This document shows, piece after piece, positions 1 to 20,994 of a stretch of 64,000 bases of DNA. Both the position numbers and the translations under genes were made by a program. The notes below the pieces were generated by a model, which was not told the DNA's origin, made no database searches, and was given only the letters and a program-made list of their open reading frames with translations. The stretch's first letter is position 1, and each line of letters starts with the position of its first letter. This DNA is from Candidatus Omnitrophota bacterium (GTDB lineage Bacteria > Omnitrophota > Gorgyraeia > Zapsychrales > JANLHA01): positions 6,447 to 70,446 of the forward strand of contig JAKQKX010000069.1 of the NCBI GenBank assembly GCA_029560465.1. The letters run 5' to 3'.

Positions 1-1606
1 CCAGGAAGAGTTCCTGTTTCAAATTGAGCGTACACGTTTCGAGGGGCGGCTCAAGCCGCTCGGTGTTTGGCCGGTACCTGGAGAACGCACTTCAGATTTA
101 GATCGTACAGGCGGGGTTATCCAGGTCAGTGCGGATGCTGAGGATCTAGAGGACGCGGTTATGCGTTGTCGTCAGTATCTGAATCGAAACTTGGGGCTCG
201 ATCATAAGGATTCTTTCAAACAGTTGGCTGTCTTATTGTTAGCAAAGATTTATGATGAAACTTTATCGATTGAACAGCGCAAGTTTTGGATAAAAGGAGA
301 TGAACCATTTACAGATGCTGGGCAACAGGCCATTCAGCGACGCATCAACGAATGTATCACTGCTGCTAAAGTTTGGCAACCCGGCTTACTGACACGAGGT
401 TGGGATTTAACGCTGTCTTCTCAAGAAACCGCTCGGGTAGTGTCTGAGCTGAGCCGCTACTCTTTTAGTGAAACTCAACCCCGATACCGAACAAGTGCAT
501 TCCGTGCTATTGCCCGCAGTGTGATGGACGGGAGGGAAGGGCGCTATCCTACACCGCTAAATGTGGCCGATCTGGCAGTGCAAATGCTTCATCCTAAACC
601 GAATGAACGCATAATGGATTGTTCTAGCGGGACTGGCACCTTCTTAGCCATGACCGCGACCCATATTTTCAAAATTTATTTAGCATCTATGGGTACAACT
701 CCTGAAATGGCTAACAACGAACAGATATTGCAAGCACAACGTGAAACAGCTGCCTGGGCGGCCGGTAATGCACTTGGTTGTGATATCGATCCATTCTTGG
801 TGGTCACAAGCCGTATGAATCTGTTGTTCACTATAGGCAACCCTGGACGCATTTTCCGGATTGATGCTCGCAGTTTTCCCGATGGAGATTTAGACGGTAT
901 CGAAACAGCTCGACCTGCGATATCACTGGGAAGTATGGACGTGGTTTTGCTCAATCCATGGTTCTCGACGCAGGATACAGTCAGTGACACTTCGATCTTG
1001 AGGCGCTACGAATTGGGAAATGTCTGGGAGCGGGATGAGGATGGCGGTTATCGTAGTACCGGTAATATGAATACCGGTGGAGTGCCCCCAGAAGTGCTGT
1101 TTTTGGAACGTGCTTTGCAGTGGGTGAAGCCTGGAACTGGTCGTATAGGAATTTTGTTGCCGGATGGTCTATTAGGTAATCCCGGAGATGAATATGTCCG
1201 TTGGTGGATTCTGCGTCATTGTGAGGTTCTGGCAAGTGTTGATCTCCCGGTGGAGCCTTTCAAAGTTACTGTTAAAGAGTACGGTATGACACCTGCATTG
1301 CCGAGTCTGCTGGTGCTGCGCCGCCGTAGCCAGGAAGAATTGATCAACACCGAACATCCGGAATATAATGTTTTTATGGCTGTTGTAGATCGATCTGGTG
1401 TGGATGCTCGGGGTAACCTACTATTTCAGCGAGCACCTGATGGTGAAGAGTTAATCTTTGATGAAGAAGTTATAGAGCGTATTCGCGAAGGGGGCGAAGT
1501 GGAAATTCGGCGTACTACACGGAGCTCTCGTCGTATTCATGATGAATTACCATTGGTAGCAAGAAAATATAAGGAATTCTGCTCGACCGGAGAGGTGATG
1601 TCATGA
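1..1606 (+). CDS. Type I restriction-modification-like N6-adenine DNA methyltransferase (HsdM-like), 5' end outside the window
   Basis: The frame stays open from nt 2 to the stop at 1604-1606. Motif I-like D-C-S-S-G-T-G-T-F-L sits near nt 613-642. A catalytic motif IV variant, LLNPWF (NPWF instead of NPPF), lies near nt 949-966. The N-terminal region resembles HsdM_N (LAVLLLAKIYDE). The stop overlaps the next start as ATGA. Confidence 0.7.
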   Translation, partial: QEEFLFQIERTRFEGRLKPLGVWPVPGERTSDLDRTGGVIQVSADAEDLEDAVMRCRQYLNRNLGLDHKDSFKQLAVLLLAKIYDETLSIEQRKFWIKGDEPFTDAGQQAIQRRINECITAAKVWQPGLLTRGWDLTLSSQETARVVSELSRYSFSETQPRYRTSAFRAIARSVMDGREGRYPTPLNVADLAVQMLHPKPNERIMDCSSGTGTFLAMTATHIFKIYLASMGTTPEMANNEQILQAQRETAAWAAGNALGCDIDPFLVVTSRMNLLFTIGNPGRIFRIDARSFPDGDLDGIETARPAISLGSMDVVLLNPWFSTQDTVSDTSILRRYELGNVWERDEDGGYRSTGNMNTGGVPPEVLFLERALQWVKPGTGRIGILLPDGLLGNPGDEYVRWWILRHCEVLASVDLPVEPFKVTVKEYGMTPALPSLLVLRRRSQEELINTEHPEYNVFMAVVDRSGVDARGNLLFQRAPDGEELIFDEEVIERIREGGEVEIRRTTRSSRRIHDELPLVARKYKEFCSTGEVMS

Positions 1607-3000
1607 GCAGAAAGTTTCAGTGCAAGGCGATTCCAAGCTCATGGATTGAAAAGCAGGGCCGTCGGCTTGATTGTGGACCATATATGTCAGGAGCAATGGA
1701 AGCGCGAGAATTGCTTCGCAAACTAAAGGCGAGAAAGGATCATCTTCAAAATTTAACAGAGGGCGGTATTTCGGGGATCATTAATGCAGGACGAATTACG
1801 CGCCGGTGGGTAGATACTACTGAACATGGGTATCCATTCCTATCTAGTTCGGACATTCTTCAGGCCGATTTAGCTAACATAAGCCATATTGCAAAATCAG
1901 TTGCCCGAAAGAATAGTCAGCTTCTAATAAAAACAAGTTGGATCCTCATCACCCGCTCTGGCAATATTGGTCGTATGGCTTACGTGCGTGCCGATATGAA
2001 CGGAATGGCTTGTTCGGAAGATGTTTTAAGGATCATTCCGGATGAAAGCACTATCAAACCGGGTTATCTCTATGCATACCTTAGCACGAAGTTTGGCGTG
2101 CCAATCGTTATTTCTGGGACATATGGCTCGATCATAACCCATCTTGAACCTAATCATATCGCTGACCTCCCTGTTCCGCGTCTCGGCGCGGTGGAAGATC
2201 AAGCCCATAAGCTGATTCAACAAGCAGCAGATTTGCGAGTTGAAGGTGCAAAAGCATTCAATGAAGCAAAATTTATTTTTGATGAGATGTTGGAGGTTCG
2301 GGATAATGACAAACCTCTTTGTGGTTTGTCATTTTCAACCGTTAATGCTTCATCGTTACTGAAACGTGTTGATGCCGCCTATCATTCGCCATCGGCTATC
2401 CGCATAGAAGGCAATATTCACTCAGGATCTCATACATCAGTTGGCGAAATTGCAAACGTAATGTTGCCTCCAATTAGTTCCAGAGTCATGACTAATGAAC
2501 CCGATTACGGGTATCCATATTTCTCGGGGGATGCTCTTTATTATTGGACGCCAGAACCGAAGGGGCATTTAGCAAGAAAATCACCCAAGATTGAGACGCT
2601 CATAGTTAATGAAGAGGGGATTTTAGTACAGGCGTTTGGTCAAACCTATGGCCTGATCTGTCGTCCCACTTGGATAATTCCTAGTCTTGTTGGCTCCGCG
2701 ATTAGTGGTTTGATGCTGCGACTGACATCACCAGATAAGCGTATGTTGAGATACCTTTATGCTTTTATAGCATCTCGGGCGGGACAAATTGTGACGAAAA
2801 GGCTACCCTATGGCGGCTCTATTCCACATATGAATGAAGGCCAATATCGAGAAGTTCCAGTTCCTTTATTTGAAGACGGCTTGATCGATCGAGTTTGTGA
2901 AAAAATGGAGATTTTCATTAATTCGAAAACAACGAGCAATGCTTTAGAATCCCAAGCTCGTACCCTCGTTGAGCGCGCTATTGAAGAGGGAGGTTGCTAA
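1603..3000 (+). CDS. Type I R-M specificity subunit (HsdS-like), two target-recognition domains
   Basis: 465 aa. It shows two repeats of the conserved HsdS spacer region (LPVPRLGAVEDQAHKLIQ... and VPVPLFEDGLIDRVCEKME...). Its ATG overlaps the upstream stop, and its own stop shares one nucleotide with the next start (TAATG). Confidence 0.7.
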   Translation: MSRKFQCKAIPSSWIEKQGRRLDCGPYMSGAMEARELLRKLKARKDHLQNLTEGGISGIINAGRITRRWVDTTEHGYPFLSSSDILQADLANISHIAKSVARKNSQLLIKTSWILITRSGNIGRMAYVRADMNGMACSEDVLRIIPDESTIKPGYLYAYLSTKFGVPIVISGTYGSIITHLEPNHIADLPVPRLGAVEDQAHKLIQQAADLRVEGAKAFNEAKFIFDEMLEVRDNDKPLCGLSFSTVNASSLLKRVDAAYHSPSAIRIEGNIHSGSHTSVGEIANVMLPPISSRVMTNEPDYGYPYFSGDALYYWTPEPKGHLARKSPKIETLIVNEEGILVQAFGQTYGLICRPTWIIPSLVGSAISGLMLRLTSPDKRMLRYLYAFIASRAGQIVTKRLPYGGSIPHMNEGQYREVPVPLFEDGLIDRVCEKMEIFINSKTTSNALESQARTLVERAIEEGGC

Positions 3001-6000
3001 TGGCGAAAGTTATACCCATTGGGCAACCCACGAACGAATCTGAACGTCAAGCGATTGGGTTTCTTCGGGACCATTTGCCTGACGGCTGGTTAATATTTCA
3101 TAATTTCGAGATGCGTCAGAGTGAGGAAGTTTTCGAGATTGACATCGCTATTCTCGCTCCTCACGCAATTTATTTGGTGGATGTCAAAGGTACGAGGGGC
3201 AATATCGATGTTTACGGTTCCAAGTGGTATCCTGAGGGACGACAGCCGTTTTTTTCGCCACTGGCCAAATTGCGTAGTCACGCCAAGAGCATGGCTGCGA
3301 TTATTCGTGAAAGCAACACCGGTCTCATCGAGTTGCGCAAGGCTCACGTGCATGCCACCGTACTGCTCACTGCCGACGACGCCACCGTATATGACCAAGC
3401 AGGTATCGATAGCCCTGATGTAACTGATCTGAAGCACTGCCTGAAATATTTCCGTGACCAAAGCCGCATCCCTGACAATCGGTTGGATAACATTTCCCGC
3501 TTCCACTCTCAAATTATCAAGGCGATCACTGGTAACGCCAAACCCAAAAGTGCGGCCATGGTATTTCGTGATTGGCAGGTTGAAGAGAAGCTGGGTGGAA
3601 CTGACCGGTATACTGAGTATCGTGCCAAGCACAATTTGTTAGGTAAGAGTGGGGGGTTTGCCCGGTTGCGTGTATATAAGACCGATCCTTATCAGGATGA
3701 AGTCGCTCGTAAGGAAGAATTTAAGAAGATAAGTAATGCGTACCGCGCTGTGGCGCACATGCCAACCCATGCCAATATATTGGCTGTTAAGGACCTTTTT
3801 ATCAATGATGATGAAGATAAGGTCGTATTAGTTACTGAGGATTTGCCTAGCCAAGCCTTGCGGTTGCATATAAATAAAACATCGCTAGCTCTGACCTTTG
3901 ACCAGAAACTTCAGGTAATGCGGGATGTTTTGTCGGCCTTGGATCATGCTCATCGCCATGAGGTAATCCATCGCAATCTGACTACGGATGCACTACTGAT
4001 AACCAAAGGGGGACAAGCGCGCGTTACTGGTTTCGATTTTGCCCGGGTTGGCAAAAATCGCACCTCGACGATTGCTGATCAGATTGTAGATGACCTCGAT
4101 GCAGCTTACCAATCTCCAGAGTGCTTTAAGGACCCTTCCCAGGCGAGCATTGCCTCTGATTTATATGCCGCTGGCCTAATTTTTTATGAACTGTTAACTG
4201 GTGAATTGCCTTTTGAAAATGTTGATCAGATGATGGAGGCTGATGGCAAATTTCCGATGAAACCTACGGAGCATAAACCGGACTTACCCAATGGGATCGA
4301 CGAATGGTTACAGATGTTCTGTGAGTTTGATCCGGAAGATCGTTATGCCAGTGCAGCTATTGCCAGGAAAGCCTTAGATGATCTGATTTTACCTGAAGCC
4401 AAGAATAATTCCACACCTGTCGCAGGTAGTCCATTGTCAGAAACACCAAAGTTCCCGGATGATTTGACTAATTTACCGCAGGATTTTATTTTGGCAGATC
4501 GATTTCGCATTCAAAAGAAATTAGGAAGTGGAGGTTTCGGAGTAGCCTATAAGGTATTTGATTCCTTGGGTGATGTAGTACGGGTTATCAAGTTGGTGAC
4601 GAAAGACCGTCGAAGTATTTATGAGCGCTTACGCCGAGAATATAAAACTCTCACTAACCTACCAGAGCATCCTCACGTTGTAAAGGTTGTTTGGGCAGAC
4701 AGGATGACTGATGCTAAGCAGACACCATATATTGTTTTTGACTACGTGGAAGGTCTTGATGTTTCAGGTCTGATCGAGGCGGAGGCTTTGTCGCTTGAAG
4801 ATTCCGTGCGTATAGTCCGAGAAGCTGCGGAGGGACTTGGACATCTGCATAAGCATGGGGTATATCACCAAGACGTGAAGCCTTCTAATCTTCTTTGGAC
4901 AGACAAGGGTGTCCGAATAATTGATTTCAATGTTGCTGTTTCTGAAAACAATGAGGTTATGGGGGGAGGTGGCACCCGTCGTTATGTTCCACCAGATTAT
5001 AATTATTCAAGTGAACCCGAAGCTGCTGATCGTAAAGACCGGGACCTCTATGCTCTGGGGATTACATTTTATGAATGTTTAACTGGAAAATATCCGTTTG
5101 ACGGGCCGACTCCACCGATTAAGGGGCAGGCAAAGGATCCTAAACAGTTCAAGGGCTGTGCAGATTTAAGTTTATCCTTGATCGCTGTGTTGGTGAAGAT
5201 GATCGAACCGGAACGTAAGGATAGATTTGCTTCGGTACAGGAGTTTTTATCTGCTTTAGCGGTGGTTAAACATTATCGGTCGGTTCTTAGCACCAGTGAA
5301 ATAGATGCCGGTCATAAAGTTGTAGCTAAATTGAGCTTCGAGCCAACCAAACCGAACACAAATCCCTTTGTGATGCATCTTTTAACACTATATAGTCAAA
5401 GTCAAGTGTCTAATGCGGGGACTCGTGGCTTAGACGAAGTAGGCAAAGCGACATATGTATCGACTTATCTTGACGAAAAACTCCAACCCGCTCTGCTTAA
5501 AGGGGAGTTTCGGTTGGTGATCATCAGTGGTAATGCGGGTGACGGCAAGACGGCTTTTATCCAGCAATTTGAAACCTTTGCGGAAAGTAAGGGTGCACAG
5601 ATGCAACGGGGAGTTAATGGTGCTGTCTTTCAGCTTAAGGGGCACACATATCAGAGTAACTATGATGGTAGCCAGGATGAAGGGGATGAACGTAATGACG
5701 CTGTATTGCAGAAATTTTTTGCGCCTTTTGTCGGGAAAGATAATTCGGCCTGGCCCGAAAATCAAACTCGACTGATTGCGATTAATGAGGGCCGCCTCGT
5801 TGATTTCTTTCTTGAACATGAGGACAAATTCCCATTGTTGTCTATGCATATTAAGAAGGGACTTTTGGGGAGCATGCCGGAAGAAGGGGTGGTGGTAATT
5901 AACCTTAATCTACGCTCAGTGGTAGCTGAGCCCTCGGGAACTCAATCTTCAATTCTGGAACGCCTACTTGCACGCATGTGCAATCAGGAATATTGGCAAG

Positions 6001-7136
6001 CTTGTGAAAAGTGCGACATCAAGGCCAAATGTTACGCCTATCACAATATCAAGACTTTTCAGGATCCTGTCGCTGGCCCCAAGGTGATAGACCGATTGAA
6101 AATGCTTTACACTATTACCCATTTGCGGGGTAGATTGCACATCACAATGCGTGACCTGCGGTCAGCGTTGGCTTTTATGCTAGTTGGAACACGTAATTGC
6201 GACGATATCCATAATCTTTACCAAAACGGTGGAGAAGTGAACAAGAATCGAATTCTTGATAGCCTCTACTTTAACTCATGGTTGGGGGGAAGTGAAGGTT
6301 CAAATGACCGGCTCATCTCATTATTACGAGAGATCGATGTGGCTGAGGTAAGCAATCCAGCAATGGATCGTGAAATGGATTTCTTAAATCCACAATCTAA
6401 ACCGATGAGCCGGTTTTCCTTTACTGAAAGAGCCGGTTATGACGATGAGCTTATTGCGGCGCTGTTTCGTAACCTACCCAGAGAATTTACTTCTAAAAAC
6501 CGTCCAAGATTGATTTCAAAACATCGTGATTATCTTTCCCATATGCGCCGCCGCCTTTTTTTTGAACATCGTGATAGTGCCTGGAAAGGGATGCTTCCAT
6601 ATGGAAGCATTGATTCATTTCTTGCAGCCATTAAGGATTCCGGTATAAAAAATAAAAATGACGCCGCAACAATTCTTCGTGCAATTAACCGAGGTGAAGG
6701 CCTAAGTGATCCAGACCGGTTAGGTAATCAATTAGCATTAAAAGTCCGCCAGGTGGAAAAAGGTACTATTCGTAGTTATCGACTTTTTGACGGAGGACTC
6801 TTTACTCTACGCACTGAACAAGAAACAGCCGCCCATCCATTTCTGGAATGTTTGTCCCAAGCTCTTGTACTTATTTATAATTCTGGTGATAACCACGTGG
6901 CCAGCTTGCGAATTAATCTCGATGTTTATGAAATGTTGATGCGGTTAAACAAAGGATATAGACCGAGTATCGAGGAACAAGAGGGCTTTTATCTCAGTTT
7001 GGCTGTTTTCAAAAATATTCTTTCCGCTGCGCCATACCATGAAATTCTTTTGACGGAAAGCGGTTTTGATTTCTTCCAGATCCGTCGTAAGGAAAACGGT
7101 GTCCTGCATCTGGGGAAAGTAAGCCGGGAGACATAA
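3000..7136 (+). CDS. Multidomain protein: N-terminal NERD nuclease-related domain, two Hanks-type protein-kinase-like domains, and a C-terminal P-loop NTPase region of about 540 aa
   Basis: NERD signature: EVFEIDIAILAPHAIYLVDVKGTRGNI. Kinase-like domain 1 has a G-rich loop GKSGGFA, catalytic loop HRNLTT (Asn in place of the catalytic Asp, nt 3968-3979) and DFA. Kinase domain 2 has GSGGFGVAY, VIKL, HQDVKPSN (nt about 4864-4890), DFN and an APE-like PPDY...DLYALG. Walker A is ISGNAGDGKT at nt about 5524-5553. A GGGAGG RBS lies upstream. Confidence 0.8.
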   Translation: MAKVIPIGQPTNESERQAIGFLRDHLPDGWLIFHNFEMRQSEEVFEIDIAILAPHAIYLVDVKGTRGNIDVYGSKWYPEGRQPFFSPLAKLRSHAKSMAAIIRESNTGLIELRKAHVHATVLLTADDATVYDQAGIDSPDVTDLKHCLKYFRDQSRIPDNRLDNISRFHSQIIKAITGNAKPKSAAMVFRDWQVEEKLGGTDRYTEYRAKHNLLGKSGGFARLRVYKTDPYQDEVARKEEFKKISNAYRAVAHMPTHANILAVKDLFINDDEDKVVLVTEDLPSQALRLHINKTSLALTFDQKLQVMRDVLSALDHAHRHEVIHRNLTTDALLITKGGQARVTGFDFARVGKNRTSTIADQIVDDLDAAYQSPECFKDPSQASIASDLYAAGLIFYELLTGELPFENVDQMMEADGKFPMKPTEHKPDLPNGIDEWLQMFCEFDPEDRYASAAIARKALDDLILPEAKNNSTPVAGSPLSETPKFPDDLTNLPQDFILADRFRIQKKLGSGGFGVAYKVFDSLGDVVRVIKLVTKDRRSIYERLRREYKTLTNLPEHPHVVKVVWADRMTDAKQTPYIVFDYVEGLDVSGLIEAEALSLEDSVRIVREAAEGLGHLHKHGVYHQDVKPSNLLWTDKGVRIIDFNVAVSENNEVMGGGGTRRYVPPDYNYSSEPEAADRKDRDLYALGITFYECLTGKYPFDGPTPPIKGQAKDPKQFKGCADLSLSLIAVLVKMIEPERKDRFASVQEFLSALAVVKHYRSVLSTSEIDAGHKVVAKLSFEPTKPNTNPFVMHLLTLYSQSQVSNAGTRGLDEVGKATYVSTYLDEKLQPALLKGEFRLVIISGNAGDGKTAFIQQFETFAESKGAQMQRGVNGAVFQLKGHTYQSNYDGSQDEGDERNDAVLQKFFAPFVGKDNSAWPENQTRLIAINEGRLVDFFLEHEDKFPLLSMHIKKGLLGSMPEEGVVVINLNLRSVVAEPSGTQSSILERLLARMCNQEYWQACEKCDIKAKCYAYHNIKTFQDPVAGPKVIDRLKMLYTITHLRGRLHITMRDLRSALAFMLVGTRNCDDIHNLYQNGGEVNKNRILDSLYFNSWLGGSEGSNDRLISLLREIDVAEVSNPAMDREMDFLNPQSKPMSRFSFTERAGYDDELIAALFRNLPREFTSKNRPRLISKHRDYLSHMRRRLFFEHRDSAWKGMLPYGSIDSFLAAIKDSGIKNKNDAATILRAINRGEGLSDPDRLGNQLALKVRQVEKGTIRSYRLFDGGLFTLRTEQETAAHPFLECLSQALVLIYNSGDNHVASLRINLDVYEMLMRLNKGYRPSIEEQEGFYLSLAVFKNILSAAPYHEILLTESGFDFFQIRRKENGVLHLGKVSRET

Positions 7137-7138
7137 TT

Positions 7139-8830
7139 ATGAGTATCAAAAGTAGAGATAAGGAATTCCGTACACCTAAAACAACTTATATTGATTTTAA
7201 ACATATTGAAATGGACCGAGTTTTAACAATGTTATTCCCTCGACTTAAATATGATGGTTATGCCAGCCGATTTAGCCGAGGACGAATTTTAGATGTTGAT
7301 GATTTTCTTAACGAATTTCTTGATAGGGGGGAATGGTTTGATGGTTTTGGTGATCATAAGGAAGTCTGTCGAAAATGGATAGAAACAGATTTATTGGATT
7401 TGGTAAATCGTGGGAAAGCTAATCAAGCTGTCGCTGCGCCACGGCCATTACATGGAAACACCTATAAATTTCGTAATGTTAAGCATACCCGCGATTATGG
7501 TGCTGCCGAACAAATTTATTGGCTGCTCTTTTACGCTCGCAGAGGTAAGGGGCAAGCTGCTCGTGATGCTTTGAAACGTTTCTTTTTCACAGGCTATGAC
7601 TTCCATACGGATAAGTATGATGCAAATCTTAATGTTGATGTAGAAACTCAGGCAATTTTGCGTCTTGATCATCAAGTTACTCAGGATACCAAAAGCTCTG
7701 ATGAGCCTACCAGATTCCAACCATTGTGTATAGGTCAGGCTGATATCATGGCGGATGATTTATTGCGGCTTTTAGCGTATGAACCTTATATCCCCCGGTC
7801 TGTGTTGGTAGATTATTTAAAAACTTTGATGGCTTTCCATTTGGCTTTATATCACCTTAAGTTGTTACACATGCTCCCTAAGCTGGTGAAGCAACGTTCT
7901 GGCAATGATCTTTGTAGTATGAAGGAATGTCCAATTAAATCTGGCTTGGACAATGCACTGGAAGGGTGTCCATATCGGATCTCTATAATCGTGGATATGG
8001 CAGATGTAAATAATCCACATATGTCGGAACTCGCTCGCAAATCAACCGACCGTTTATATCGACAAATCCCTGTTTTTGTGCAGGCCAATTTCATCATAAA
8101 GAAACTAGATGAAATGGCAGACAACCTTCGCCTTCAAGGGAAAATGCCGTTGCCCTCTTATGGATTTTTTAGCGTGAATGATCTATTGTCGCTACTCAAA
8201 CCAGAACATCAACAAAATAGGGAAACATATTTTTCTGCTCGTCTTTCCAGGATGGTTGAAGACTCTGGTTCTAATGGGGAAGAATTAGACCCAGAGATTC
8301 GAGAAGTTTTGTCTATAGATCTTGATGATTTCGACAAGTTTATTGAAATTCTTATGGCATATCGAGGCAAATACCATAGGCAATATATTACTGAGTGTTT
8401 AGATTCATTACTTCTTAAGAATAAGGAAAACGGTTTGCTTGCACAGTCCCGCACTAAAGGTAGTCCCCGTCGATTTGTCCTTGGAAGCAAGCTCCTTGAA
8501 GTGCTATTGCAGGTTGCTGTGTTAGCATATGAGGAAGGACGTTTCGTAACTCGTGAATTACGAGTTGAAGATCTACTGGGCTTTTTAAGAAATCGATATG
8601 GCTTATACATAGATCGCCTGCCGGAAGATGGCCAGCACATTAAAGCTAATAATTGCAGTATCGTAGATAGGCGGGCACTTCGCTTAAATCTTGAAGCATT
8701 CAAACGACGATTGCGTGAAATAGGTTTTTACCAAGATTTGTCGGACGCGTATGTGACCCAGAAAATATCGCCTCGTTATGCTATCGAGAGAGGCCAAGGG
8801 GCTATGCTGGATGGAGAGCCACGTAAATGA
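7139..8830 (+). CDS. Hypothetical protein (563 aa), middle gene of the operon; I recognise no catalytic motif
   Basis: ORF with 2-nt spacing from the upstream stop, and an ATGA overlap with the downstream gene. Coding-like composition. No motif I can name. Confidence 0.6.
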   Translation: MSIKSRDKEFRTPKTTYIDFKHIEMDRVLTMLFPRLKYDGYASRFSRGRILDVDDFLNEFLDRGEWFDGFGDHKEVCRKWIETDLLDLVNRGKANQAVAAPRPLHGNTYKFRNVKHTRDYGAAEQIYWLLFYARRGKGQAARDALKRFFFTGYDFHTDKYDANLNVDVETQAILRLDHQVTQDTKSSDEPTRFQPLCIGQADIMADDLLRLLAYEPYIPRSVLVDYLKTLMAFHLALYHLKLLHMLPKLVKQRSGNDLCSMKECPIKSGLDNALEGCPYRISIIVDMADVNNPHMSELARKSTDRLYRQIPVFVQANFIIKKLDEMADNLRLQGKMPLPSYGFFSVNDLLSLLKPEHQQNRETYFSARLSRMVEDSGSNGEELDPEIREVLSIDLDDFDKFIEILMAYRGKYHRQYITECLDSLLLKNKENGLLAQSRTKGSPRRFVLGSKLLEVLLQVAVLAYEEGRFVTRELRVEDLLGFLRNRYGLYIDRLPEDGQHIKANNCSIVDRRALRLNLEAFKRRLREIGFYQDLSDAYVTQKISPRYAIERGQGAMLDGEPRK

Positions 8831-11800
8831 GCAATACTTTTACTAAATTATCTAGGGATAAAATGAACGATACGGTTGCTGAATTGCTAGGCCCTCGTAT
8901 TGAAGCGACTTTAGACGGCCGTGGTCCGGGGCATTGTATGCGGGTGACAGACCTTGACGATGATGTAATGGAATCTGTCTGTAAAGAACTTCGTCGGACT
9001 TATACAGATGGAAACATCTTTATTCTGGGTGGTCATGATCACGAAGAACTCCCCTTTCGGATTACATCCACCAAGTTAGTCGAAATACGAAATCCTAGTG
9101 CTAACGGTGAGCTGCGAAAACCATTGCTTGTTTTTATTCCAAACTCACTTCGAACCAGCGCCGAGGATTCCTTTGGAGTGGCTACCTTTGAGGAACTTTC
9201 ATTTAATGGCATCTATAAGGAATTGGTCAAATCTCTCATTGATCGATTGCCTGCAACATTAGTTGGACCTATACATGATTTATTCGACTTATTAGCTGAA
9301 GAAGATTGGATATATGTAGATGATGTCGCAAGTGCTAGGTATTTGTTGACGGCTTTAGAGAATGGTATTGATGGTGAAACATTGGGAGCCAGCCTATACG
9401 AGTTAACTTTAATTCCGGATTTCAAACTCTTTGCTGATCCTGCGATGGTCAATGTAAAGATCCGAAGAAATCTTAGCAGTATCCGTGGTCTGATGACCTC
9501 ACATAAATCTGTGCGCGGACGTATTGTAGAACTGGGCTTAAGCGATAAGGATCTCGAAGCCCGTCTGTTTGCCTTTTTCCAGAAGAATGATATTCAGGAG
9601 CCCGACGGCTGGGCATCTATTATAGCTACCGATAAAAAGTGGTGGAATATTTCGTTTGATAAATGGTCTTTTCAGGAAGAGCTTTCTTTGGATAAGATCC
9701 ATTTGGCTGTTCTGGAAACGGATCTTCCGGTGGCGCAGGACGAGGAAAAGAATGGGCAGTTATCTGGGCTTACGGGACAGCAGATTTTGGTGCCCACTGA
9801 TCGACGAAAAATAAATGTTCTTTTTGAAGTCAATCCACACCCTAGCAAGGTCAACGGGTTAGATCATTTTACAATACAAATTGTCTCTCAAAATGACGGC
9901 CCTGTGGGGAAGTCAAAAAAAATCAAATCTTGGAAACCTGCTCGTCTTCAGTGTACGGTTAATCTAGCCAAACTCAATAAAATTGAATTTGAGGAGGGTT
10001 GGCATTTTATCAGAATTCTTCCTTGGACTGCCGATGGAGATCCAATCCCTTTGGAAACGGAATATAGTTCTGATTCATCCAGACGATCCCATGAGAGCGA
10101 ACCATTTTATGTTCTTCCAGGAGGTAGCTTGGAAGAAGATCCCCCACAAAGAGCAATACCAATTGACAAGAGTGTTGAACATGCACGCTTTAGGTTGCAG
10201 TTCACGGCACTTGGTGACGAGAGAGATCCTGATGATATAGCCATTTCTAGTTTATCATGGGCAGAAGCAGGGCGAACGAGAAGAACTTCACGTCAGGCTA
10301 CAGTGTTGGCTAAATTCGGACGAGAGGGAGCCATTCAAATTCCATTGTCACAAATGCTTAAAACAATCGAACAGCGAATTTTAGACAAGCCAAAACATCT
10401 TTCTGGATGGAGGATGCAAATCAATTTAGATGCCGCAGAAAACCCTTCGGAAATTGGTCTGATTTTCCCTCAATCTTCCGCAATGGCTTCATTCTTATCT
10501 GCTCGTGAGGATTTGTTTGCTTCTGTGCATCAAGATAAGTCCGAATTGATTATGCAAGGGTTTTCGTTCAGAGACCATGAAAAAAAGTGTCTAACATATG
10601 CCGAGGCCTACCTCGATTGGGTATGTAGCCTGATGCGACAGGCCGAAGCAGCTTCTGGAACTGAGCGGCAGAATCATCTTCAGGCTTTGCGCAATGTGCT
10701 AGCTGTAGATTCAATTCATGTGATCTTGACGGATTTCCGAGGCAGACATAGAGAGGCGGTATTGGTTTCTTCAACTCATCCTTTGCGTGTGTTATGGCTG
10801 TCAAGTTGGGTAAGTCTTGGTCAGGATTGGATTGATAAGATTAAGTCAGGAGGCAAAGATTATATTTCTTATGTGCGTACAGCTCTTTTGGATGGGTTGG
10901 TTCCTTCAGCTTACCCAGTGGGTATTCCAGTTGAAGATGGACGAATATTTACTCCGGTAGATAATCTGAATCCATTTTGGGCGCTTTACGCTCCTACCAC
11001 TGAAGAGAACTCCAGGGGGTTAATGGCCGAAATTTGTTCTGCGCTTGGGTTATCCGAGCCATCGGTTGCGGGATCAGATATTTCTGGAAAAGTGATAGCA
11101 GACAAAATTGAACGATACCTGTCCCAGCACCCCTATGTTCGTGAATTATCTCTGAACATTTTTAATCCTGGGGCGGGCTCAGTGATCGCAGACGCCTTAT
11201 TATCTCTGCAACAAAAACGAGAATACTCAGATTTACGCTATAACATTCGTCTTTTTACATCGGACCCTGATTCGCCAGTGTTGGGTGATGCTCTGGAGTC
11301 TATGCTTCGGCCAGGAACAACGGTTAACGAGGCAGCCGACGCTTTTGCAACATCTACAGGTAGCCATTTATTTTCGAAATTAAATTTAGCCAAACATTCA
11401 GTGTCGGATTTCCACACCAATGTTAAAGAATACTTCGCGCATATCAGTATTTTGCTTGATGTATTCCCTGCTGAGGAACTTGCTATCATCGAGAAGCCTT
11501 CGGGAATTATTCCACTGCATGGCTTAATACAAGATTTTGAAACCGAATTTGTGGATGATGACTCGGGTACCTACTGGAATAAACGGCCGATAGTTGGAAG
11601 AGTTTTAAATACTGATAGCCAGCTAGCCTGCTTTGATTTGCTTTCTTCCTTAAGTAGCGAATTGTGCTTGGCAACAGCCGCTGTTGCGGCATCAGGTGCA
11701 AGTTTTAAAGCGGTGCCTGTTGTAACCCTTGGATTGGATGTTGCGCAACGCGAACTAATATATGAAGTTCATAAAAGAAGCGACTGGGTCTTCACCATTG

Positions 11801-14277
11801 ATCGAAACATGGGAATAGAGTTTTTTGATCACGGAGGTCGAAAAAACAGACCAGACTATCTGATTGATTATGTGCCTGGATCCAGTTCACAGGCAACCCA
11901 CAACTTGATTATCTCTTCGAGATCTGTTGATGAGCTTGAAGCTATGTTGAAACCTATTCTCCAAAGCCATGGCATATCTGTTGACGGGGAGCAATCAATA
12001 CAGATTTTGTCTCATCTTCGTTCTCTTTCGGGTCAGCTTGCTTTGAAATTGATTTCCGCCCCTACACAACAGGCCGAAGCTCTTGGTTTGGCTTTGGCCA
12101 GATTATTCCTTGAGTATCAAGGAGCTTTGAGTAATCAGATTATTATTCCTTTGGATTCTCATACAAATCTGTACCGATCCGGCGGAGAAGAAGAAAATGT
12201 TGATGACGCTATCAGTCTACAACGTACAGATTTAGCACTGTTTGATTTGAATTTGGCAAAGAGGATCATTTCGTGCAATCTGGTGGAAGTGAAATGTTAT
12301 TCGCAAGTGGGCGATTTCTCGGCTTTTAATCAACTTAAAGAAAGAATTTCTGCGCAGATTAACCAGAGTGAACGTGTCCTCCAGAGACATTTTGATCCTG
12401 CATTGAGAAAGCCGGATCGACCTGACCGACTGCTTAAAAGCCGTGAGTTGGCACAAATTCTTCGTTTTTATCTTGAACGATCCTTGCGTTACAATATTTT
12501 TGATAAGATTGCATCGCAGGAAGCGCGTGTATTCCTCGAATCTATTGAACAGGGATATACCCTTCAATTCCGGCGTTGTGCATTAATTTTTGATTTTGAA
12601 AAGAATGGAACCGAGGAACCGGAAAATGAAGTTGGTATTGAATTTCATCGGATAGGTAAAGATTTAATACACGCTTTGTTGGATAACTGTCGCAGGCCGA
12701 CTGCAACAGGGGTTGAGGAAGAATCGTTTGCTATTCATTCACTCAGTGAGCAACTAATTGCAAAAGTACCCAAAATAGAAACTGCGGCTTTCATTGTGCC
12801 TAAACGGGAAAGATCGACATCGTGGACGATAGAAGAGCCTTTATATGATGCTAAGAAAAATGCCGATGATGACAGTATAAGTGACAAAACTAATAATGTC
12901 GCTTTGGGCGATCGGGCATTTTCTCCTACAGCTGGTGAGAAATTTTCAAGGCCTACTGTGATTGAGACCGGAATTGATGAAAAGAAAGTTGAAGATTACG
13001 AGCAAGGCTCCTCAGATGAGGCATCATTTTCCGAGAATGAAAAGGTTTCAGAACCAAGAATGATAGACGAGCCCGAGCAAATTCTCAATTACGACATAAT
13101 GATTGGTGTTAATGGAAGATCGCCACAATATGGTTTACTGGGTGAGGTGTCTGGAAGAAAGATTGCCTTGGATTTGAACCATACTCATACAATTAGCCTT
13201 TTTGGGGTTCAAGGCGGTGGTAAGAGTTATACATTAGGTACAGTGGTTGAGATGGCTTCGATGGCAATAGAAAATATTAATATCCTTCCAAGTCCGCTCT
13301 CCGCCGTAATCTTTCACTACAGTCCGACACAGGATTATGCGCCTGAATTTACATCTATGACTCGACCGAATTCAGTTTTGGAGGAAGTAGAGATCCTCCG
13401 AGAGCGTTATAAGGCGCGGCCAGAGGCATTGCGAGATGTTTTGATACTTACGCCCTTAAATAAGGTTGCGGCCCGAAAGGCAGAATATCCAGAAATCGAA
13501 GTGCGACCAATTGCTTTCTCAGCTTCTGAATTAAAAGCCGCTCACTGGAAATTTTTAATGGGGGCAATTGGCAGCCAAAGCATGTATATGCGGCAAATCA
13601 ACCTTATAATGCGGACTCTTCGAGAAAGTTTAACGTTAAATAATATACGCAATGGAATAGAGAATTCCAACTTGACCGACCATTTGAAAGAATTGGCTAG
13701 AACCCGGTTGCTTTTCGCGAGCGAATACATTGATGACAATCAGCGACTCCAGGATTTGATTCATCCTGGACGATTAATTATTGTGGATTTGCGAGATGAA
13801 TATATTGAGAAAGATGAGGCCCTAGGTTTGTTCGTAGTTATGCTGCAAATTTTTTCTGAGGCTACCTATTGTGGTAAAACTTTTAATAAATTAGTGGTTT
13901 TTGACGAGGCCCATAAATACATTGAGAATGCTGACCTGATTTCCGGTTTGGTTGAGGTTGTGCGTGAAATGAGACATAAAGGAACCAGCATTTTAGTGGC
14001 ATCTCAAGATCCTCCTTCAGTTCCTGTGGCGCTAATTGAGCTGTCATCCCAGATCATCTTGCATAAATTTAATTCACCAGCTTGGCTGAAGCATATACAG
14101 AAGGCCAATGCTGCATTAGGTGGGTTAACGTCCGCAAAAATGAGTCACCTAAGTGCAGGGGAAGCATATATTTGGTCAAGTAAGGCATCGGATGAATCAT
14201 TTACTAAAGGTGCTGTAAAAGTAAAATGTCGGCCAAGGATAACACAACATGGTGGTTATACGAAAACGGCATTATAA
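8827..14277 (+). CDS. Large protein (1816 aa): about 1400-aa N-terminal region of unknown function plus a C-terminal HerA/FtsK-superfamily (DUF87-like) ATPase
   Basis: Walker A context LDLNHTHTISLFGVQGGGKSYTLG (nt about 13180-13240). Walker B is KLVVFDEAHKYIE (nt about 13893-13925). Sensor-like ILVASQDPPSVP. Start overlaps the upstream stop (ATGA). Confidence 0.8.
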   Translation: MSNTFTKLSRDKMNDTVAELLGPRIEATLDGRGPGHCMRVTDLDDDVMESVCKELRRTYTDGNIFILGGHDHEELPFRITSTKLVEIRNPSANGELRKPLLVFIPNSLRTSAEDSFGVATFEELSFNGIYKELVKSLIDRLPATLVGPIHDLFDLLAEEDWIYVDDVASARYLLTALENGIDGETLGASLYELTLIPDFKLFADPAMVNVKIRRNLSSIRGLMTSHKSVRGRIVELGLSDKDLEARLFAFFQKNDIQEPDGWASIIATDKKWWNISFDKWSFQEELSLDKIHLAVLETDLPVAQDEEKNGQLSGLTGQQILVPTDRRKINVLFEVNPHPSKVNGLDHFTIQIVSQNDGPVGKSKKIKSWKPARLQCTVNLAKLNKIEFEEGWHFIRILPWTADGDPIPLETEYSSDSSRRSHESEPFYVLPGGSLEEDPPQRAIPIDKSVEHARFRLQFTALGDERDPDDIAISSLSWAEAGRTRRTSRQATVLAKFGREGAIQIPLSQMLKTIEQRILDKPKHLSGWRMQINLDAAENPSEIGLIFPQSSAMASFLSAREDLFASVHQDKSELIMQGFSFRDHEKKCLTYAEAYLDWVCSLMRQAEAASGTERQNHLQALRNVLAVDSIHVILTDFRGRHREAVLVSSTHPLRVLWLSSWVSLGQDWIDKIKSGGKDYISYVRTALLDGLVPSAYPVGIPVEDGRIFTPVDNLNPFWALYAPTTEENSRGLMAEICSALGLSEPSVAGSDISGKVIADKIERYLSQHPYVRELSLNIFNPGAGSVIADALLSLQQKREYSDLRYNIRLFTSDPDSPVLGDALESMLRPGTTVNEAADAFATSTGSHLFSKLNLAKHSVSDFHTNVKEYFAHISILLDVFPAEELAIIEKPSGIIPLHGLIQDFETEFVDDDSGTYWNKRPIVGRVLNTDSQLACFDLLSSLSSELCLATAAVAASGASFKAVPVVTLGLDVAQRELIYEVHKRSDWVFTIDRNMGIEFFDHGGRKNRPDYLIDYVPGSSSQATHNLIISSRSVDELEAMLKPILQSHGISVDGEQSIQILSHLRSLSGQLALKLISAPTQQAEALGLALARLFLEYQGALSNQIIIPLDSHTNLYRSGGEEENVDDAISLQRTDLALFDLNLAKRIISCNLVEVKCYSQVGDFSAFNQLKERISAQINQSERVLQRHFDPALRKPDRPDRLLKSRELAQILRFYLERSLRYNIFDKIASQEARVFLESIEQGYTLQFRRCALIFDFEKNGTEEPENEVGIEFHRIGKDLIHALLDNCRRPTATGVEEESFAIHSLSEQLIAKVPKIETAAFIVPKRERSTSWTIEEPLYDAKKNADDDSISDKTNNVALGDRAFSPTAGEKFSRPTVIETGIDEKKVEDYEQGSSDEASFSENEKVSEPRMIDEPEQILNYDIMIGVNGRSPQYGLLGEVSGRKIALDLNHTHTISLFGVQGGGKSYTLGTVVEMASMAIENINILPSPLSAVIFHYSPTQDYAPEFTSMTRPNSVLEEVEILRERYKARPEALRDVLILTPLNKVAARKAEYPEIEVRPIAFSASELKAAHWKFLMGAIGSQSMYMRQINLIMRTLRESLTLNNIRNGIENSNLTDHLKELARTRLLFASEYIDDNQRLQDLIHPGRLIIVDLRDEYIEKDEALGLFVVMLQIFSEATYCGKTFNKLVVFDEAHKYIENADLISGLVEVVREMRHKGTSILVASQDPPSVPVALIELSSQIILHKFNSPAWLKHIQKANAALGGLTSAKMSHLSAGEAYIWSSKASDESFTKGAVKVKCRPRITQHGGYTKTAL

Positions 14278-14375
14278 ATCAGCAGACAGCAAAGCGATGA
14301 TTCTTCTGAAAATATTTAGCTGATCTTAAAAGAATGGAATTACCAGTTGGGCGAATTACCAGTTGCTAGAAATAA

Positions 14376-14404
14376 TTGACATATCCAAAAACTGGGCGTA
14401 TATT
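14376..14404 (+). promoter_or_regulatory. Sigma70-like promoter (TTGACA-N17-TATATT), preceded by a direct repeat GAATTACCAGTTG x2
   Basis: TTGACA at 14376-14381, 17-nt spacer, TATATT at 14399-14404. The tandem 13-nt repeat at about 14337-14368 could be an operator. Confidence 0.35.
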
Positions 14405-14454
14405 AATAAATAATATTCAGTGGTGCGTTTGAAGGGGGAATCCTCCACTTTAAA

Positions 14455-14496
14455 AAAGTCAAACCTTTGCTCGATTGGGCAGAGGTTTTTATTTTA
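14455..14496. terminator. Rho-independent, possibly bidirectional terminator for the operon
   Basis: Stem AAACCTTTGC / GCAGAGGTTT (10 bp, one G-U pair) with an 8-nt loop. An A-run lies before it and TTTTTATTTTAT after it. Confidence 0.5.
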
Positions 14497-14530
14497 TCGG
14501 AATAAATTTTAGAATTGGAGGGAAATCATA

Positions 14531-14704
14531 ATGCAGAACCGAACACTTACTGGCACGATTGCGTATTGGACAATGTTTTTCTTAACCCGGATTATTATGT
14601 TCCTGCTGGCGTGGAGTATCGTGCTGATTGTCCGGGCTTTCCGGTTTATTTTCCGGATCCCCGTGAAAGAAAAGGCGCCCATTGGGTTCCACGTGGTCAG
14701 ATGA
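14531..14704 (+). CDS. Small hydrophobic membrane protein (57 aa), absent from the ORF track because it is under 60 aa
   Basis: ATG at 14531 with GGAGGG 9 nt upstream. Translation is MQNRTLTGTIAYWTMFFLTRIIMFLLAWSIVLIVRAFRFIFRIPVKEKAPIGFHVVR. One or two predicted TM helices. Confidence 0.3.
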   Translation: MQNRTLTGTIAYWTMFFLTRIIMFLLAWSIVLIVRAFRFIFRIPVKEKAPIGFHVVR

Positions 14705-15039
14705 AGGGCGTTTATGTCAGCAATGGATAGAAAATCTGTGCTTTTGGCTATAAATAATGGCTTAAAGTACTTTCCTGCCATCTGCCTCCTGCTCGGCTTG
14801 AGTCTAATGCTGTTTCCCGCGAATTTTAACAAGGTGCTGTATAATCCTAACGACCAGTCTTACCGAATGGTTAAAATCAATTATTCGCGGGATACGCGGA
14901 TTGTCAATTGGCGTATTATCGGGCTTATATTTATCGGAAGCAGTTTTTGTCATTTCAAAAACGGCCGCAAAGGCCTCTCCTGATTTTTTCACTTTTCTTC
15001 CTTAGAAGTCTGAATCCCACCGGTTTTTCGAGCGAAATC

Positions 15040-15180
15040 CTTTCTTGATTCTTGTCTTTTGATTCTACCACATGGTCAAGGACGTCGTCCCGGCAAGCGT
15101 GACTCGCAAGTGGCTCTGTGAGCCATCCTTGACTTTCATGTGGCCTTTCTTGAATCAAAAAGAATCAAGAAAGGAGCCGT
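15040..15180 (+). promoter_or_regulatory. Long nested inverted-repeat structure in the 5' leader of the 15184 ORF; the 3' arm overlaps the RBS
   Basis: CCTTTCTTGATTC (15040-15052) is the exact reverse complement of GAATCAAGAAAGG (15163-15175). That sequence is the 3' half of the local near-palindrome TTTCTTGAATC-AAAAA-GAATCAAGAAA and overlaps the AAAGGAG RBS. An inner inverted repeat is CCACATGGTCAAGGA ... TCCTTGAC..CATGTGG. Confidence 0.45.
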
Positions 15181-15183
15181 GCG

Positions 15184-15414
15184 ATGGACAAGTCAGACAA
15201 ACTTTATTTGGCGATCAATATCAATGATTACAGAGATTATTTCAGGAGAGGCGAGACCAGTGAGCCGAAGGTTTCATTTCAGCTTATTAAAGCAAAGAAT
15301 ATTAAAAGTGCGAAAGAAATCGTTCGGAAGGATCATCCCGGAAGCACATGGGGTGTGGTTCCGGTCGGGCAGATAGAGAAACACATGGTTTTTGAAAGGA
15401 GCACCAAGGCTTAA
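15184..15414 (+). CDS. Small hypothetical protein (76 aa)
   Basis: ATG 7 nt after the AAAGGAG RBS. No recognisable motif. Confidence 0.45.
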   Translation: MDKSDKLYLAININDYRDYFRRGETSEPKVSFQLIKAKNIKSAKEIVRKDHPGSTWGVVPVGQIEKHMVFERSTKA

Positions 15415-18872: not shown

Positions 18873-18910
18873 AAAGCCATCCCAGATCTGGCTGTGGGGT
18901 GGCTTTTTGT
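18873..18910 (+). repeat. Copy 1 of a near-identical 38-40 nt hairpin + T-run element
   Basis: AAAGCCATCCCAGATCTGGCTGTGGGGTGGCTTTTTGT. Stem GCCAUCCC/GGGGUGGC. Copy 2 at 19892-19929 differs at 2 nt. Confidence 0.55.
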
Positions 18911-19891: not shown

Positions 19892-19929
19892 AAAGCCATC
19901 CCAGATCTGGCTCGGGGGTGGCTTTTTGT
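19892..19929 (+). repeat. Copy 2 of the same hairpin + T-run element
   Basis: AAAGCCATCCCAGATCTGGCTCGGGGGTGGCTTTTTGT. Lies about 35 nt upstream of the RBS of the 19966 gene. Confidence 0.55.
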
Positions 19930-20980: not shown

Positions 20981-20994
20981 AGGAGGGATGAATT

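Follow-up and report, generated by a model that had tools for sequence, protein, structure and literature searches.

Sequence-based assignment of a methylation, kinase and ATPase gene cassette to a seven-gene MADS operon

The methylation-associated defence system (MADS) was described in Pseudomonas aeruginosa SMC4386, where it is encoded by the genes mad1-mad8 (Maestri et al. 2023 preprint, 10.1101/2023.03.30.534895). In that strain host DNA is marked by N6-adenine methylation (m6A) at a bipartite, type I-like motif, TCAGNNNNTCC, and this mark is gone in a mad2 deletion strain; the system stops phages and plasmids whose sites are unmethylated, methylation by Mad2 shields plasmids from restriction by the same operon, and phages can escape epigenetically (10.1101/2023.03.30.534895). 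Defence requires the Mad6 kinase, Mad7 and the Mad8 ATPase, deletion of any of which abolishes it, and also requires Mad3 and Mad4 (10.1101/2023.03.30.534895).

MADS is an already known and named system: its phenotype has been published, PADLOC and NCBIfam both have models for it, and RefSeq annotates it routinely. The description reportedly appeared in its final form as Maestri et al., Cell Host Microbe 2024. MADS is defined by its authors' MacSyFinder model, in which MAD6, MAD7 and MAD8 are mandatory and MAD3 and MAD4 accessory. MANTIS (Gao_RL), which also surfaced in the literature, is a separate system.

Here a stretch of 64,000 nucleotides (termed the window) is analysed, at the start of which the original prediction had placed a five-gene cassette of a composition found in no described system. 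Judged by their profile matches, the five genes are the downstream part of an anti-phage MADS operon: positions 1-14498 are assigned to the last five genes of the order mad1-mad2a-mad2b-mad5-mad6-mad7-mad8 (Table 1). The explanation favoured here for the locus as a whole--a seven-gene MADS operon carried on an island and combining an m6A-marking module with a DndFGH/SspFGH-like restriction machine--is given a probability of about 0.9.

Table 1. Features of the MADS operon within the window (nucleotide positions unless marked aa).
Feature	Position	Strand	Description
mad2b	1-1606	+	second of tandem MAD2 methyltransferase paralogues; NCBIfam MADS2; 5' end cut
mad5	1603-3000	+	type I-like specificity (S) subunit; 465 aa; NCBIfam MADS5, PADLOC mad5
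mad6	3000-7136	+	1378 aa from ATG; start in ORF list, TTG 2994
Mad6 NERD nuclease-like domain	about 3033-3317	+	Pfam
Mad6 pseudokinase	about 3705-4364	+	HRN; Pfam
Mad6 Ser/Thr kinase	about 4506-5231	+	active-looking, HQDVKPSN and DFN; Pfam
Mad6 SspF/DndF-like P-loop domain	about 5460-6974	+	SspF/DndF profiles
mad7	7139-8830	+	DndG/SspG-like; 563 aa; NCBIfam MADS7, PADLOC mad7
mad8	8827-14277	+	DndH-like giant; 1816 aa
Mad8 N-terminal MAD8 signature	aa 35-238
Mad8 PD-(D/E)xK restriction-endonuclease fold	about 11911-12693	+	predicted fold
Mad8 linker	aa ~1300-1420		unconserved
Mad8 HerA/FtsK-type ATPase	13093-14268	+
Intrinsic terminator, operon end	14461-14488, annotated to 14498	+	12-bp stem, 5 G-C pairs, T-rich tail

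The five genes follow one another head to tail on the plus strand of positions 1-14277, as established both by ORF calls and by reading the junctions directly: ATGA at 1603-1606 (mad2b/mad5), TAATG at 2998-3002 (mad5/mad6), TAA-TT-ATG at 7134-7141, with a 2-nt gap (mad6/mad7), and ATGA at 8827-8830 (mad7/mad8). The terminator stem, which is followed by TTATTTTAT, is the top terminator-like site within 1-16000. The five genes constitute one co-translated operon. The gene orientation, junctions and single terminator of the original prediction are borne out, as is its structural reading, in which a type I-like M+S module is coupled to two giant proteins, one with kinase domains and one with an ATPase; the length that it gave for the kinase protein, 1379 aa, is corrected to 1378. 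Conjugation and integrase genes adjoin the operon, which rides an integrative, conjugative-type island. Rfam and tRNA scans of the window returned no matches, and the protein encoded at 41960-43210 gave none when looked up.

All five window proteins match curated NCBIfam equivalog models (MAD2, MAD5, MAD6, MAD7 and MAD8), and the PADLOC mad2, mad5, mad6, mad7 and mad8 models agree with these calls. Four of the five exceed the NCBIfam cut-offs: Mad5 (460.7 against 400; PADLOC 1e-29), Mad6 (832 against 460; PADLOC 6e-118), Mad7 (651 against 410; PADLOC 1e-115) and Mad8 (235 against 175; PADLOC 2e-39). The truncated Mad2b falls below its cut-off because the window start cuts the gene: its 534-codon open frame runs off the window start and stops at 1606, and it scores 656 bits over profile positions 130-654 of 654, whereas the full-length MAD2 copies on the source contig score 795.6 (Mad2b, 673 aa) and 1022.8 against a cut-off of 720. 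The locus thus encodes MAD6, MAD7 and MAD8 together, i.e., the full mandatory set, with the N6-adenine methyltransferase MAD2 and the specificity subunit MAD5 in the same operon. Homologues of Mad7 carry the precomputed Pfam assignment PF26611 (MAD7) and the NCBI name MAD7. By the terms of the original prediction itself, strong homology between the downstream genes and any system that already has a name would count against novelty; such homology, to MADS, is what was found.

The genes just upstream were read from a metagenome source contig that is 100% identical to the window over positions 1-600. They are mad1, which encodes a 98-aa HTH_17 protein at the operon head (a borderline NCBIfam MADS1 match, at 80.3 against a cut-off of 80), and the first mad2 (mad2a), with a divergent HTH gene beyond; the supposed five-gene cassette really has seven genes. 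RefSeq annotates the same seven genes in identical order in Escherichia coli APEC E956, where every gene is annotated as MADS (mads1, 2, 2, 5, 6, 7, 8). With positions 1-14500 as the query, megablast gave no matches in complete E. coli genomes or in plasmids, and the E. coli homologue surfaced only under sensitive blastn, at 69% identity.

These flanking data bear on whether the locus is a classical type I restriction-modification system with hsdR just beyond the window, the three large genes being an embedded, independent insert. Its M and S subunits are type I-like, and both MAD2 paralogues have an HSDR_N_2 domain at the N-terminus. What lies upstream on the source contig, however, is mad1, mad2a and the divergent HTH gene with no hsdR, and the annotated E. 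coli locus likewise has no intact hsdR, only a downstream 165-nt 'restriction endonuclease' pseudogene fragment; this arrangement has next to no probability. More generally, HsdR, PglZ and Dnd/Ssp modification genes are missing both from the annotated genes of the window and from the 2.8 kb that precede it on the identical contig, which agrees with what had been noted from the visible DNA.

The domain calls made earlier--N6_Mtase, Methylase_S, the NERD domain and two kinases of Mad6, its P-loop domain, and the HerA-type ATPase of Mad8--were confirmed, and profile matches link each of the three downstream proteins to DndFGH/SspFGH subunits, as had been proposed by analogy. The C-terminal 600 aa of Mad6 match SspF at 1e-31 over nearly its full length (profile positions 39-526 of 560) and DndF at 1e-8; a sequence search of this region against solved structures gave no match. 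The Walker A motif GNAGDGKT lies within 5526-5558, and the Mad6 motifs are kept in 66 homologues. Mad7 matches the PADLOC SspG model at 2e-7; it gave no detectable match in a sequence search against solved structures, and a 40-sequence Mad7 profile did not reach the DndG structure that the MADS authors report by HHpred, so that its link to DndG rests on the PADLOC SspG matches and the literature. Mad8 matches DndH at 5e-8 over about 200 residues and also matches a HerA profile. The locus thus encodes homologues, albeit distant ones, of the F, G and H subunits together, and the domain grammar of Mad6 and Mad8 agrees with published dissections of DndF and DndH (PMC10853773).

Such matches could also be read as a Dnd/Ssp restriction module that depends on phosphorothioate modification by genes elsewhere in the genome, and the SspF, SspG and DndH matches, along with the JGI naming of Mad8 homologues, speak for it. 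Yet among the window and source-contig genes annotated by Pfam, NCBIfam, PADLOC or precomputed Pfam there is no dndABCDE or sspABCD gene; the MADS profiles match far more strongly than the Dnd/Ssp profiles; and the operon has its own methylation module, of a family whose mark is m6A by experiment. A phosphorothioate system here is highly improbable.

The other half of Mad6 points toward PglW: residues 15-709 align with it (5.8e-63 in PADLOC and 2.4e-62 in NCBIfam), and the NERD-pseudokinase-kinase order equals that published for PglW (PMC12839542). The likeness to Pgl/BREX type 2 that had been proposed stands for this N-terminal region; it does not extend to a BREX type 2 variant in which Mad6 acts as PglW, the chances of which are very slim. 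The PglW equivalog gives 211 bits, where its cut-off is 990, and aligns only with the N-terminal half of Mad6, the C-terminal half resembling SspF and not the C-terminus of PglW; the operon has no PglZ, PglX or BrxC/PglY; and its methyltransferases are MAD2 proteins, with BREX PglX models scoring 20 bits or less. Fusions of DndF to NERD and to inactive and active kinases have been described (PMC10853773).

Within Mad8, the residues D1135/D1140...E1154-V-K1156 (within 12223-12297) fall in the predicted nuclease fold, and the restriction-endonuclease domain appears, from this sequence and the fold model, to be intact. Walker A (13204-13233) and Walker B (13891-13920) follow, and the Walker motifs of both Mad6 and Mad8 are intact. 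Many Mad8 homologues bear the JGI name 'DptH'.

Within the methylation module, Mad2a and Mad2b are 38% identical. Motif I of Mad2b reads MDCSSGTGTFL (614-646); its motif IV is atypical, NPWF (within 947-970), and occurs in this form in 45 of 45 Mad2b orthologues, whereas all 56 Mad2a proteins have NPPF. Most likely Mad2b is a partner of Mad2a and Mad5, as a methyltransferase subunit that is either non-canonical or inactive. The median identity of Mad5 to its homologues in related loci is 39%, compared with 74-86% for the other MADS proteins there (except Mad1, 67%), and this low value indicates hypervariable target-recognition domains.

Conservation of the cassette was examined in related genomes by a locus scan based on an alignment of closer Mad7 homologues, a very diverse Mad7 alignment having offered no conserved stretch usable for such a scan. 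The mad5-6-7-8 genes are kept in 80 genome loci, from Acidobacteria to cyanobacteria, about 40 of which have the exact mad2a-mad2b form; this seven-gene form is the commonest MADS form among the 80 loci compared, and is not the experimentally tested one. In one locus mad6 and mad7 are separated by three unassigned ORFs.

These comparisons help to decide whether the operon is one system or two unrelated neighbours, that is, an orphan type I-like M, M, S module beside a standalone DndFGH-type counter-invader module that ignores the methyl mark. A comparative study found DndFGH modules often decoupled from modification and possibly acting alone (PMC10853773), and the gene content between mad2a and mad5 does differ among loci. 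But the five window genes overlap or nearly touch one another at their start and stop codons; mad5, mad6 and mad7 are adjacent, across many phyla, in all but one of the 73 loci in which the region upstream of mad6 is present (72 of 73); and in Pseudomonas Mad2 methylation protects DNA from restriction by the same operon. Unrelated neighbours are accordingly very unlikely, and a single MADS operon remains the preferred reading.

What varies is the slot between mad2a and mad5, where mad2b alternates with MAD3 and MAD4 among related loci (the NCBIfam models confirm the latter two there, scoring 523 and 263 bits), and on a Mad7 tree loci of the two forms are intermingled. The present locus lacks the MAD3 AAA ATPase and MAD4 DUF4276 protein between mad2 and mad5: NCBIfam MADS3 and MADS4 have no match among the five window MADS proteins and the three upstream operon genes, and no DUF4276 was found in the remaining window ORFs checked by Pfam or precomputed Pfam. 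It is possible, if doubtful, that the seven-gene form is a mechanistically distinct MADS subtype in which a conserved but degenerate Mad2b (NPWF) replaces the Mad3/Mad4 pair of ATPase and Toprim-like protein. If so, the repeated exchange of what fills this slot between close relatives would mark interchangeable 'trigger' modules. Mad2a, Mad2b and Mad5 could, by analogy with METTL3-METTL14, form a heteromer that methylates one half-site only, or whose inactive subunit senses unmethylated DNA and signals to the DndFGH-like module.

Because the restriction mechanism of MADS was still given as unknown in a 2026 review (PMC12904381), the roles proposed here for Mad2b, for the NERD domain and kinase of Mad6 and for the Mad8 nuclease are read from sequence and predicted fold. 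Mad2a, which has the canonical NPPF, would write the mark jointly with Mad5, a two-domain S subunit, and Mad6, Mad7 and Mad8 would form a DndFGH/SspFGH-like restriction machine. To this machine Mad6 would contribute a nucleotide-binding, DndF-type P-loop domain, to which a NERD nuclease domain and a pair of pseudokinase and kinase are fused; Mad7 would be a DndG-like DNA-binding subunit; and Mad8 would contribute a HerA/FtsK DNA translocase along with a restriction-endonuclease domain (D...ExK). Unmethylated Mad5-type sites may license the machine, leading to translocation and to cutting or nicking of invading DNA, while Mad2b (with NPWF and divergent SAM motifs), occupying the Mad3/Mad4 slot, may serve as a target-site reader that links recognition to the restriction module.

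The discovery value of the locus is small, and its re-analysis adds modest points: the module architecture, the Mad8 nuclease candidate, and the prevalence of the atypical-paralogue form. For MADS forms without Mad3 and Mad4, an intact Mad8 nuclease domain would be a concrete candidate for the missing nuclease. MADS is best understood as type I-like m6A marking joined to a DndFGH/SspFGH-type restriction machine whose F subunit has a PglW-like NERD-kinase head, and it thereby links three defence families.

Compared with MADS of P. aeruginosa SMC4386, the locus shares the Mad1 HTH protein, Mad2, the S subunit Mad5, Mad6, Mad7 and the HerA-type Mad8, as well as their order; it differs in that a divergent MAD2 paralogue with NPWF occupies the slot of the absent Mad3 AAA ATPase and Mad4 DUF4276 protein, which is the form annotated in E. 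coli RefSeq genomes, unlike the eight-gene P. aeruginosa form. With DndFGH/DptFGH/SspFGH it has in common a P-loop protein, a protein of ~550 aa, and a protein of ~1800 aa with a restriction-endonuclease domain and a HerA/FtsK ATPase at its C-terminal end; in contrast to DndFGH/SspFGH, it has no phosphorothioate genes, its predicted self-mark is m6A set by type I-like M and S subunits of the same operon, and the profile similarity is distant. Like BREX type 2/Pgl, it combines methylation self-marking with a NERD-pseudokinase-kinase protein, but it has no PglZ phosphatase, PglX-type methyltransferase or PglY/BrxC, and its PglW match is far under the cut-off. Finally, as in type I systems (HsdM, HsdS, HsdR), a methyltransferase works with a separate S subunit and the motif of the MADS family is bipartite; unlike them, the operon has two non-identical methyltransferases and no HsdR motor-nuclease, restriction apparently being left to the DndFGH-like module.

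The five-gene operon was originally predicted to be an undescribed defense system, a claim that fails because the operon is a methylation-associated defence system (MADS), which already has a name, experimental support and routine annotation. Curated NCBIfam models match all five genes, the PADLOC mad2, mad5, mad6, mad7 and mad8 models concur, and the truncated methyltransferase scores below its cut-off solely because the window cuts the gene. MADS was found in Pseudomonas aeruginosa SMC4386 as an eight-gene operon encoding an HTH protein (mad1), an N6-methyltransferase (mad2), an ATPase with a Toprim-like region (mad3), a DUF4276 protein (mad4), a specificity subunit (mad5), a kinase (mad6), and DndG/DptG-like (mad7) and HerA-like (mad8) proteins (10.1101/2023.03.30.534895). 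There, both strands of TCAGNNNNTCC are methylated, unmethylated phages and plasmids are restricted, and the phages that escape bear an epigenetic modification; the authors' detection model treats MAD6-8 as mandatory and the rest as accessory, and they describe detection of MAD3 and MAD4 as unreliable in some systems (10.1101/2023.03.30.534895).

The operon itself is genuine and was correctly delimited. The five co-oriented frames that had been proposed are borne out by the ORF list and by the junctions as read from the sequence (ATGA at 1603, TAATG at 2998-3002, an interval of 2 nt ahead of 7139, and ATGA at 8827); the opposite-strand ORFs listed within the operon are short, and the long frames overlap them. 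The single terminator likewise holds: the best terminator-like hairpin of the first 16 kb, a 12-bp stem followed by a T-rich tail, lies at 14461-14488. A Pfam search of the operon proteins detects, in the first three window proteins, N6_Mtase, Methylase_S, and NERD plus two protein-kinase domains, and finds no match for Mad7 or Mad8.

Features of the MADS unit and its surroundings (window positions unless contig L001 is named; model scores from NCBIfam)
Feature	Positions	Strand	Length	Remarks
mad1	L001		98 aa	MADS1 80.3 bits, cut-off 80
mad2a	L001 450-2450		666 aa	first methyltransferase; MADS2 1022.8 bits
mad2b, whole	L001 2447-4468, overlapping window 1-1606		673 aa	MADS2 795.6 bits
mad2b, in window	window start to 1606	+		methyltransferase, open frame running off window edge; MAD2 656 bits, profile positions 130-654 of 654, cut-off 720
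mad5	1603-3000	+	465 aa	S subunit; MAD5 460.7 bits, cut-off 400
mad6	3000-7136	+	1378 aa counted from ATG	kinase giant; MAD6 832 bits, cut-off 460
mad7	7139-8830	+	563 aa	MAD7 651 bits, cut-off 410
mad8	8827-14277	+	1816 aa	MAD8 235 bits, cut-off 175
relaxase-like gene	19966-20706			Replic_Relax; downstream of MADS operon
VirB4/TraC ATPase	20995-23769		924 aa	
coupling protein	27756-29486			
tyrosine integrase	30016-31251			
DUF3800	32120-32857			
IS	33511-34293	minus		rve transposase
AbiEii toxin	35548-36495			
Schlafen-type helicase	37545-39953			fused to S24 peptidase
DUF6933/PRiA4	40796-41809			
AAA_14-DUF4143	41960-43210			
Fic-HTH	44470-45513			
ankyrin-repeat protein	45987-47102			
HipA	47857-48774			
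pta	53227-54228			
ackA	54182-55423			
acetate-kinase-like ORF	55405-56151			second, partial
secreted-type protein	56947-62838		1963 aa	FG-GAP repeats, GH5 cellulase domain

The window's Mad7 exactly matches a protein on several metagenome contigs; L001, such a contig, is 100% identical to window positions 1-600 and reaches 2.8 kb further upstream. Here a divergent HTH gene is followed by mad1, mad2a and mad2b (the latter two being tandem MAD2 paralogues), and the unit therefore comprises seven genes. The same seven genes occur in unchanged order in Escherichia coli APEC E956, where RefSeq names them mads1, mads2, mads2, mads5, mads6, mads7 and mads8 and where they lie within an integrase-bearing island adjoining tRNA-Leu. 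The original prediction had left room for an hsdR gene upstream; L001's upstream sequence contains none, which excludes a type I system with hsdR in that position. Two other candidates were rejected: BREX type 2, since PglZ, PglX and PglY are absent from the operon and the PglW model gives 211 against a cut-off of 990; and a phosphorothioate-dependent module, since no dnd/ssp modification genes occur among the annotated genes of the window or source contig and the family's mark is m6A.

A conservation scan (one genome per species, with locus genes assigned by BLASTP against the window proteins) returned 80 loci ranging over Acidobacteria, Geobacter, Ralstonia, Methylomonas, Chloroflexi, Actinomycetes, cyanobacteria and Spirochaetia. 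Nearly all scanned loci that retain the upstream region keep mad5-mad6-mad7-mad8; in one (L069) additional ORFs separate mad6 from mad7. That the operon instead represents two independent systems lying side by side is argued against by this strict co-occurrence, by the translational coupling of the genes and by the Pseudomonas genetics. In related loci whose other MADS proteins, Mad1 (67%) aside, show 74-86% identity, Mad5 has a median identity of 39% to its homologues, a pattern that would be expected of a specificity-setting subunit.

What differs between loci is the interval (or slot) from the first mad2 to mad5. In about 40 loci mad2b is its only gene; 11 have a pair of genes of about 424 and 213 aa there, some have a Fic-domain gene or unassigned genes, and in three the slot is empty. 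The pair tested at locus L042 is MAD3 (523 bits) and MAD4 (263 bits) by the NCBIfam models; a cyanobacterial pair (L075) falls far under the cut-offs (MADS3 88 bits, MADS4 no match). A neighbour-joining tree of Mad7 interleaves the two main slot forms, with both among the window's closest relatives; hence the slot has been exchanged repeatedly. The Fic-domain protein in the slot of L039 has 373 aa, and slot proteins of comparable size (373-381 aa) and unassigned family occur in L037, L086, L009 and L077, with the extra gene of the last two lying between the two mad2 paralogues. Slot proteins of about 570 aa in two Spirochaetia loci (L084 and L085) match no family.

What the conserved Mad2b paralogue does in seven-gene operons is the one point of some remaining interest here. 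Mad2a and Mad2b are 38% identical and differ at three motifs: motif IV is NPPF in 56/56 Mad2a and NPWF in 45/45 Mad2b sequences; motif I is DPxCGTGGFL (56/56) versus D[CG]xxG[TIM]G[TA]FL (45/45), most commonly DCSSGTGTFL; and a third motif is QYFTP (56/56) versus RYPTP (45/45). The N6_Mtase model gives Mad2b 37 bits versus 110 bits for Mad2a. The change in Mad2b is conserved rather than a sign of decay, and Mad2b is therefore under selection, probably, judging from these motifs, for a role other than that of an ordinary methyltransferase. Both paralogues start with HSDR_N_2, a domain with the fold of the N-terminal nuclease domain in type I HsdR; inspection of the alignment revealed no obvious ExK catalytic motif in it.

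Type IV secretion genes (TrbC, VirB4/TraC, TrbL, CagX/VirB9, TrbI/VirB10 and the coupling protein) occupy about 20-29.5 kb, and the region from 19966 to 31251 looks like a conjugation module, in which HTH_17 excisionase-like genes and the tyrosine integrase come after the coupling protein. Beyond it, a cluster of defence-type and toxin-type genes (32120-48774) lies between att-like repeats. A sequence resembling a tRNA gene's 3' portion (CAT anticodon loop, T arm, acceptor end CCCCGCAACCA) occurs in three direct copies (36666-36710, 43690-43734 and 45650-45669), which resemble repeated attachment sites of the kind that tandem integration of elements leaves behind; ARAGORN finds no complete tRNA within the 64-kb window. 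GC content shifts from about 0.40 to about 0.50 near 50 kb, where housekeeping-type genes (pta, ackA) start, and the remainder, to 64000, probably belongs to the host chromosome, beyond the island. Because of the conjugation genes, the integrase, the att-like repeats and the GC shift, the MADS operon is likely carried as cargo by an integrative conjugative element. Plasmids seldom carry Mad7 homologues (6 of 72,556 records).

Several smaller features were observed. A 318-aa ORF without a family match opens with three tandem 21-nt repeats (15899-15964) that encode DEDFKSP-like heptads; next comes a PAS-PAS protein (16789-18042) whose match to a GerE/LuxR-type HTH is weak and below cut-off. A 38-nt hairpin-forming sequence (AAAGCCATCCCAGATCTGGCT..GGGGTGGCTTTTTGT) occurs in two terminator-like copies 1 kb apart and 95% identical (18873-18910 and 19892-19929), which flank short ORFs and lie upstream of the conjugation genes. 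A member of a 67-nt repeat family comes after each tRNA-fragment copy (36762, 45730 and 48862), and a PAS-GGDEF protein lies among the housekeeping-type genes.

The analogies initially drawn to Pgl and Dnd/Ssp proteins proved sound, as Mad6 has profile matches to SspF/DndF and PglW, Mad7 to SspG, and Mad8 to DndH/HerA. The last 600 residues of Mad6 match SspF over almost its full span (1e-31, profile positions 39-526 of 560) and also DndF, and its first 700 align to PglW of BREX type 2. Across 66 homologues, Mad6 conserves the NERD residues E46, D48, D61 and K63, an HRN pseudokinase, a kinase with HQDVKPSN and DFN, the Walker A motif GNAGDGKT, and an asparagine-type Walker B (INEGRL). The match of Mad7 to SspG is weak; according to the MADS authors, HHpred matches it to the structure of DndG (10.1101/2023.03.30.534895). 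In Mad8, residues 870-1080 match DndH and the C-terminus matches HerA and TdpA; its Walker A and B motifs are kept, and a D1135/D1140...E1154-V-K1156 motif is conserved.

For the MADS family it has been shown experimentally that Mad2 sets an m6A self-mark and that Mad6-8 are needed to restrict unmethylated DNA (10.1101/2023.03.30.534895). In the most likely mechanism for this locus, the mark would be written by Mad2a together with Mad5, and a Mad6-Mad7-Mad8 complex would act in the manner of DndFGH, whose reported activities include nicking and translocase activities (PMC11662687): the predicted nuclease and HerA motor of Mad8 would act on DNA with unmethylated sites, the NERD and kinase domains of Mad6 would serve as co-effectors or regulators, and Mad2b, in place of Mad3/Mad4, would link site recognition to restriction. 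How MADS restricts DNA is still listed as unknown in a 2026 review (PMC12904381).

The published domain order of a subset of DndF proteins is identical to that of Mad6 (PMC10853773), as is that of PglW (PMC12839542), and the published architecture of DndH, in which a restriction-endonuclease domain precedes a HerA/FtsK ATPase, fits Mad8 (PMC10853773).
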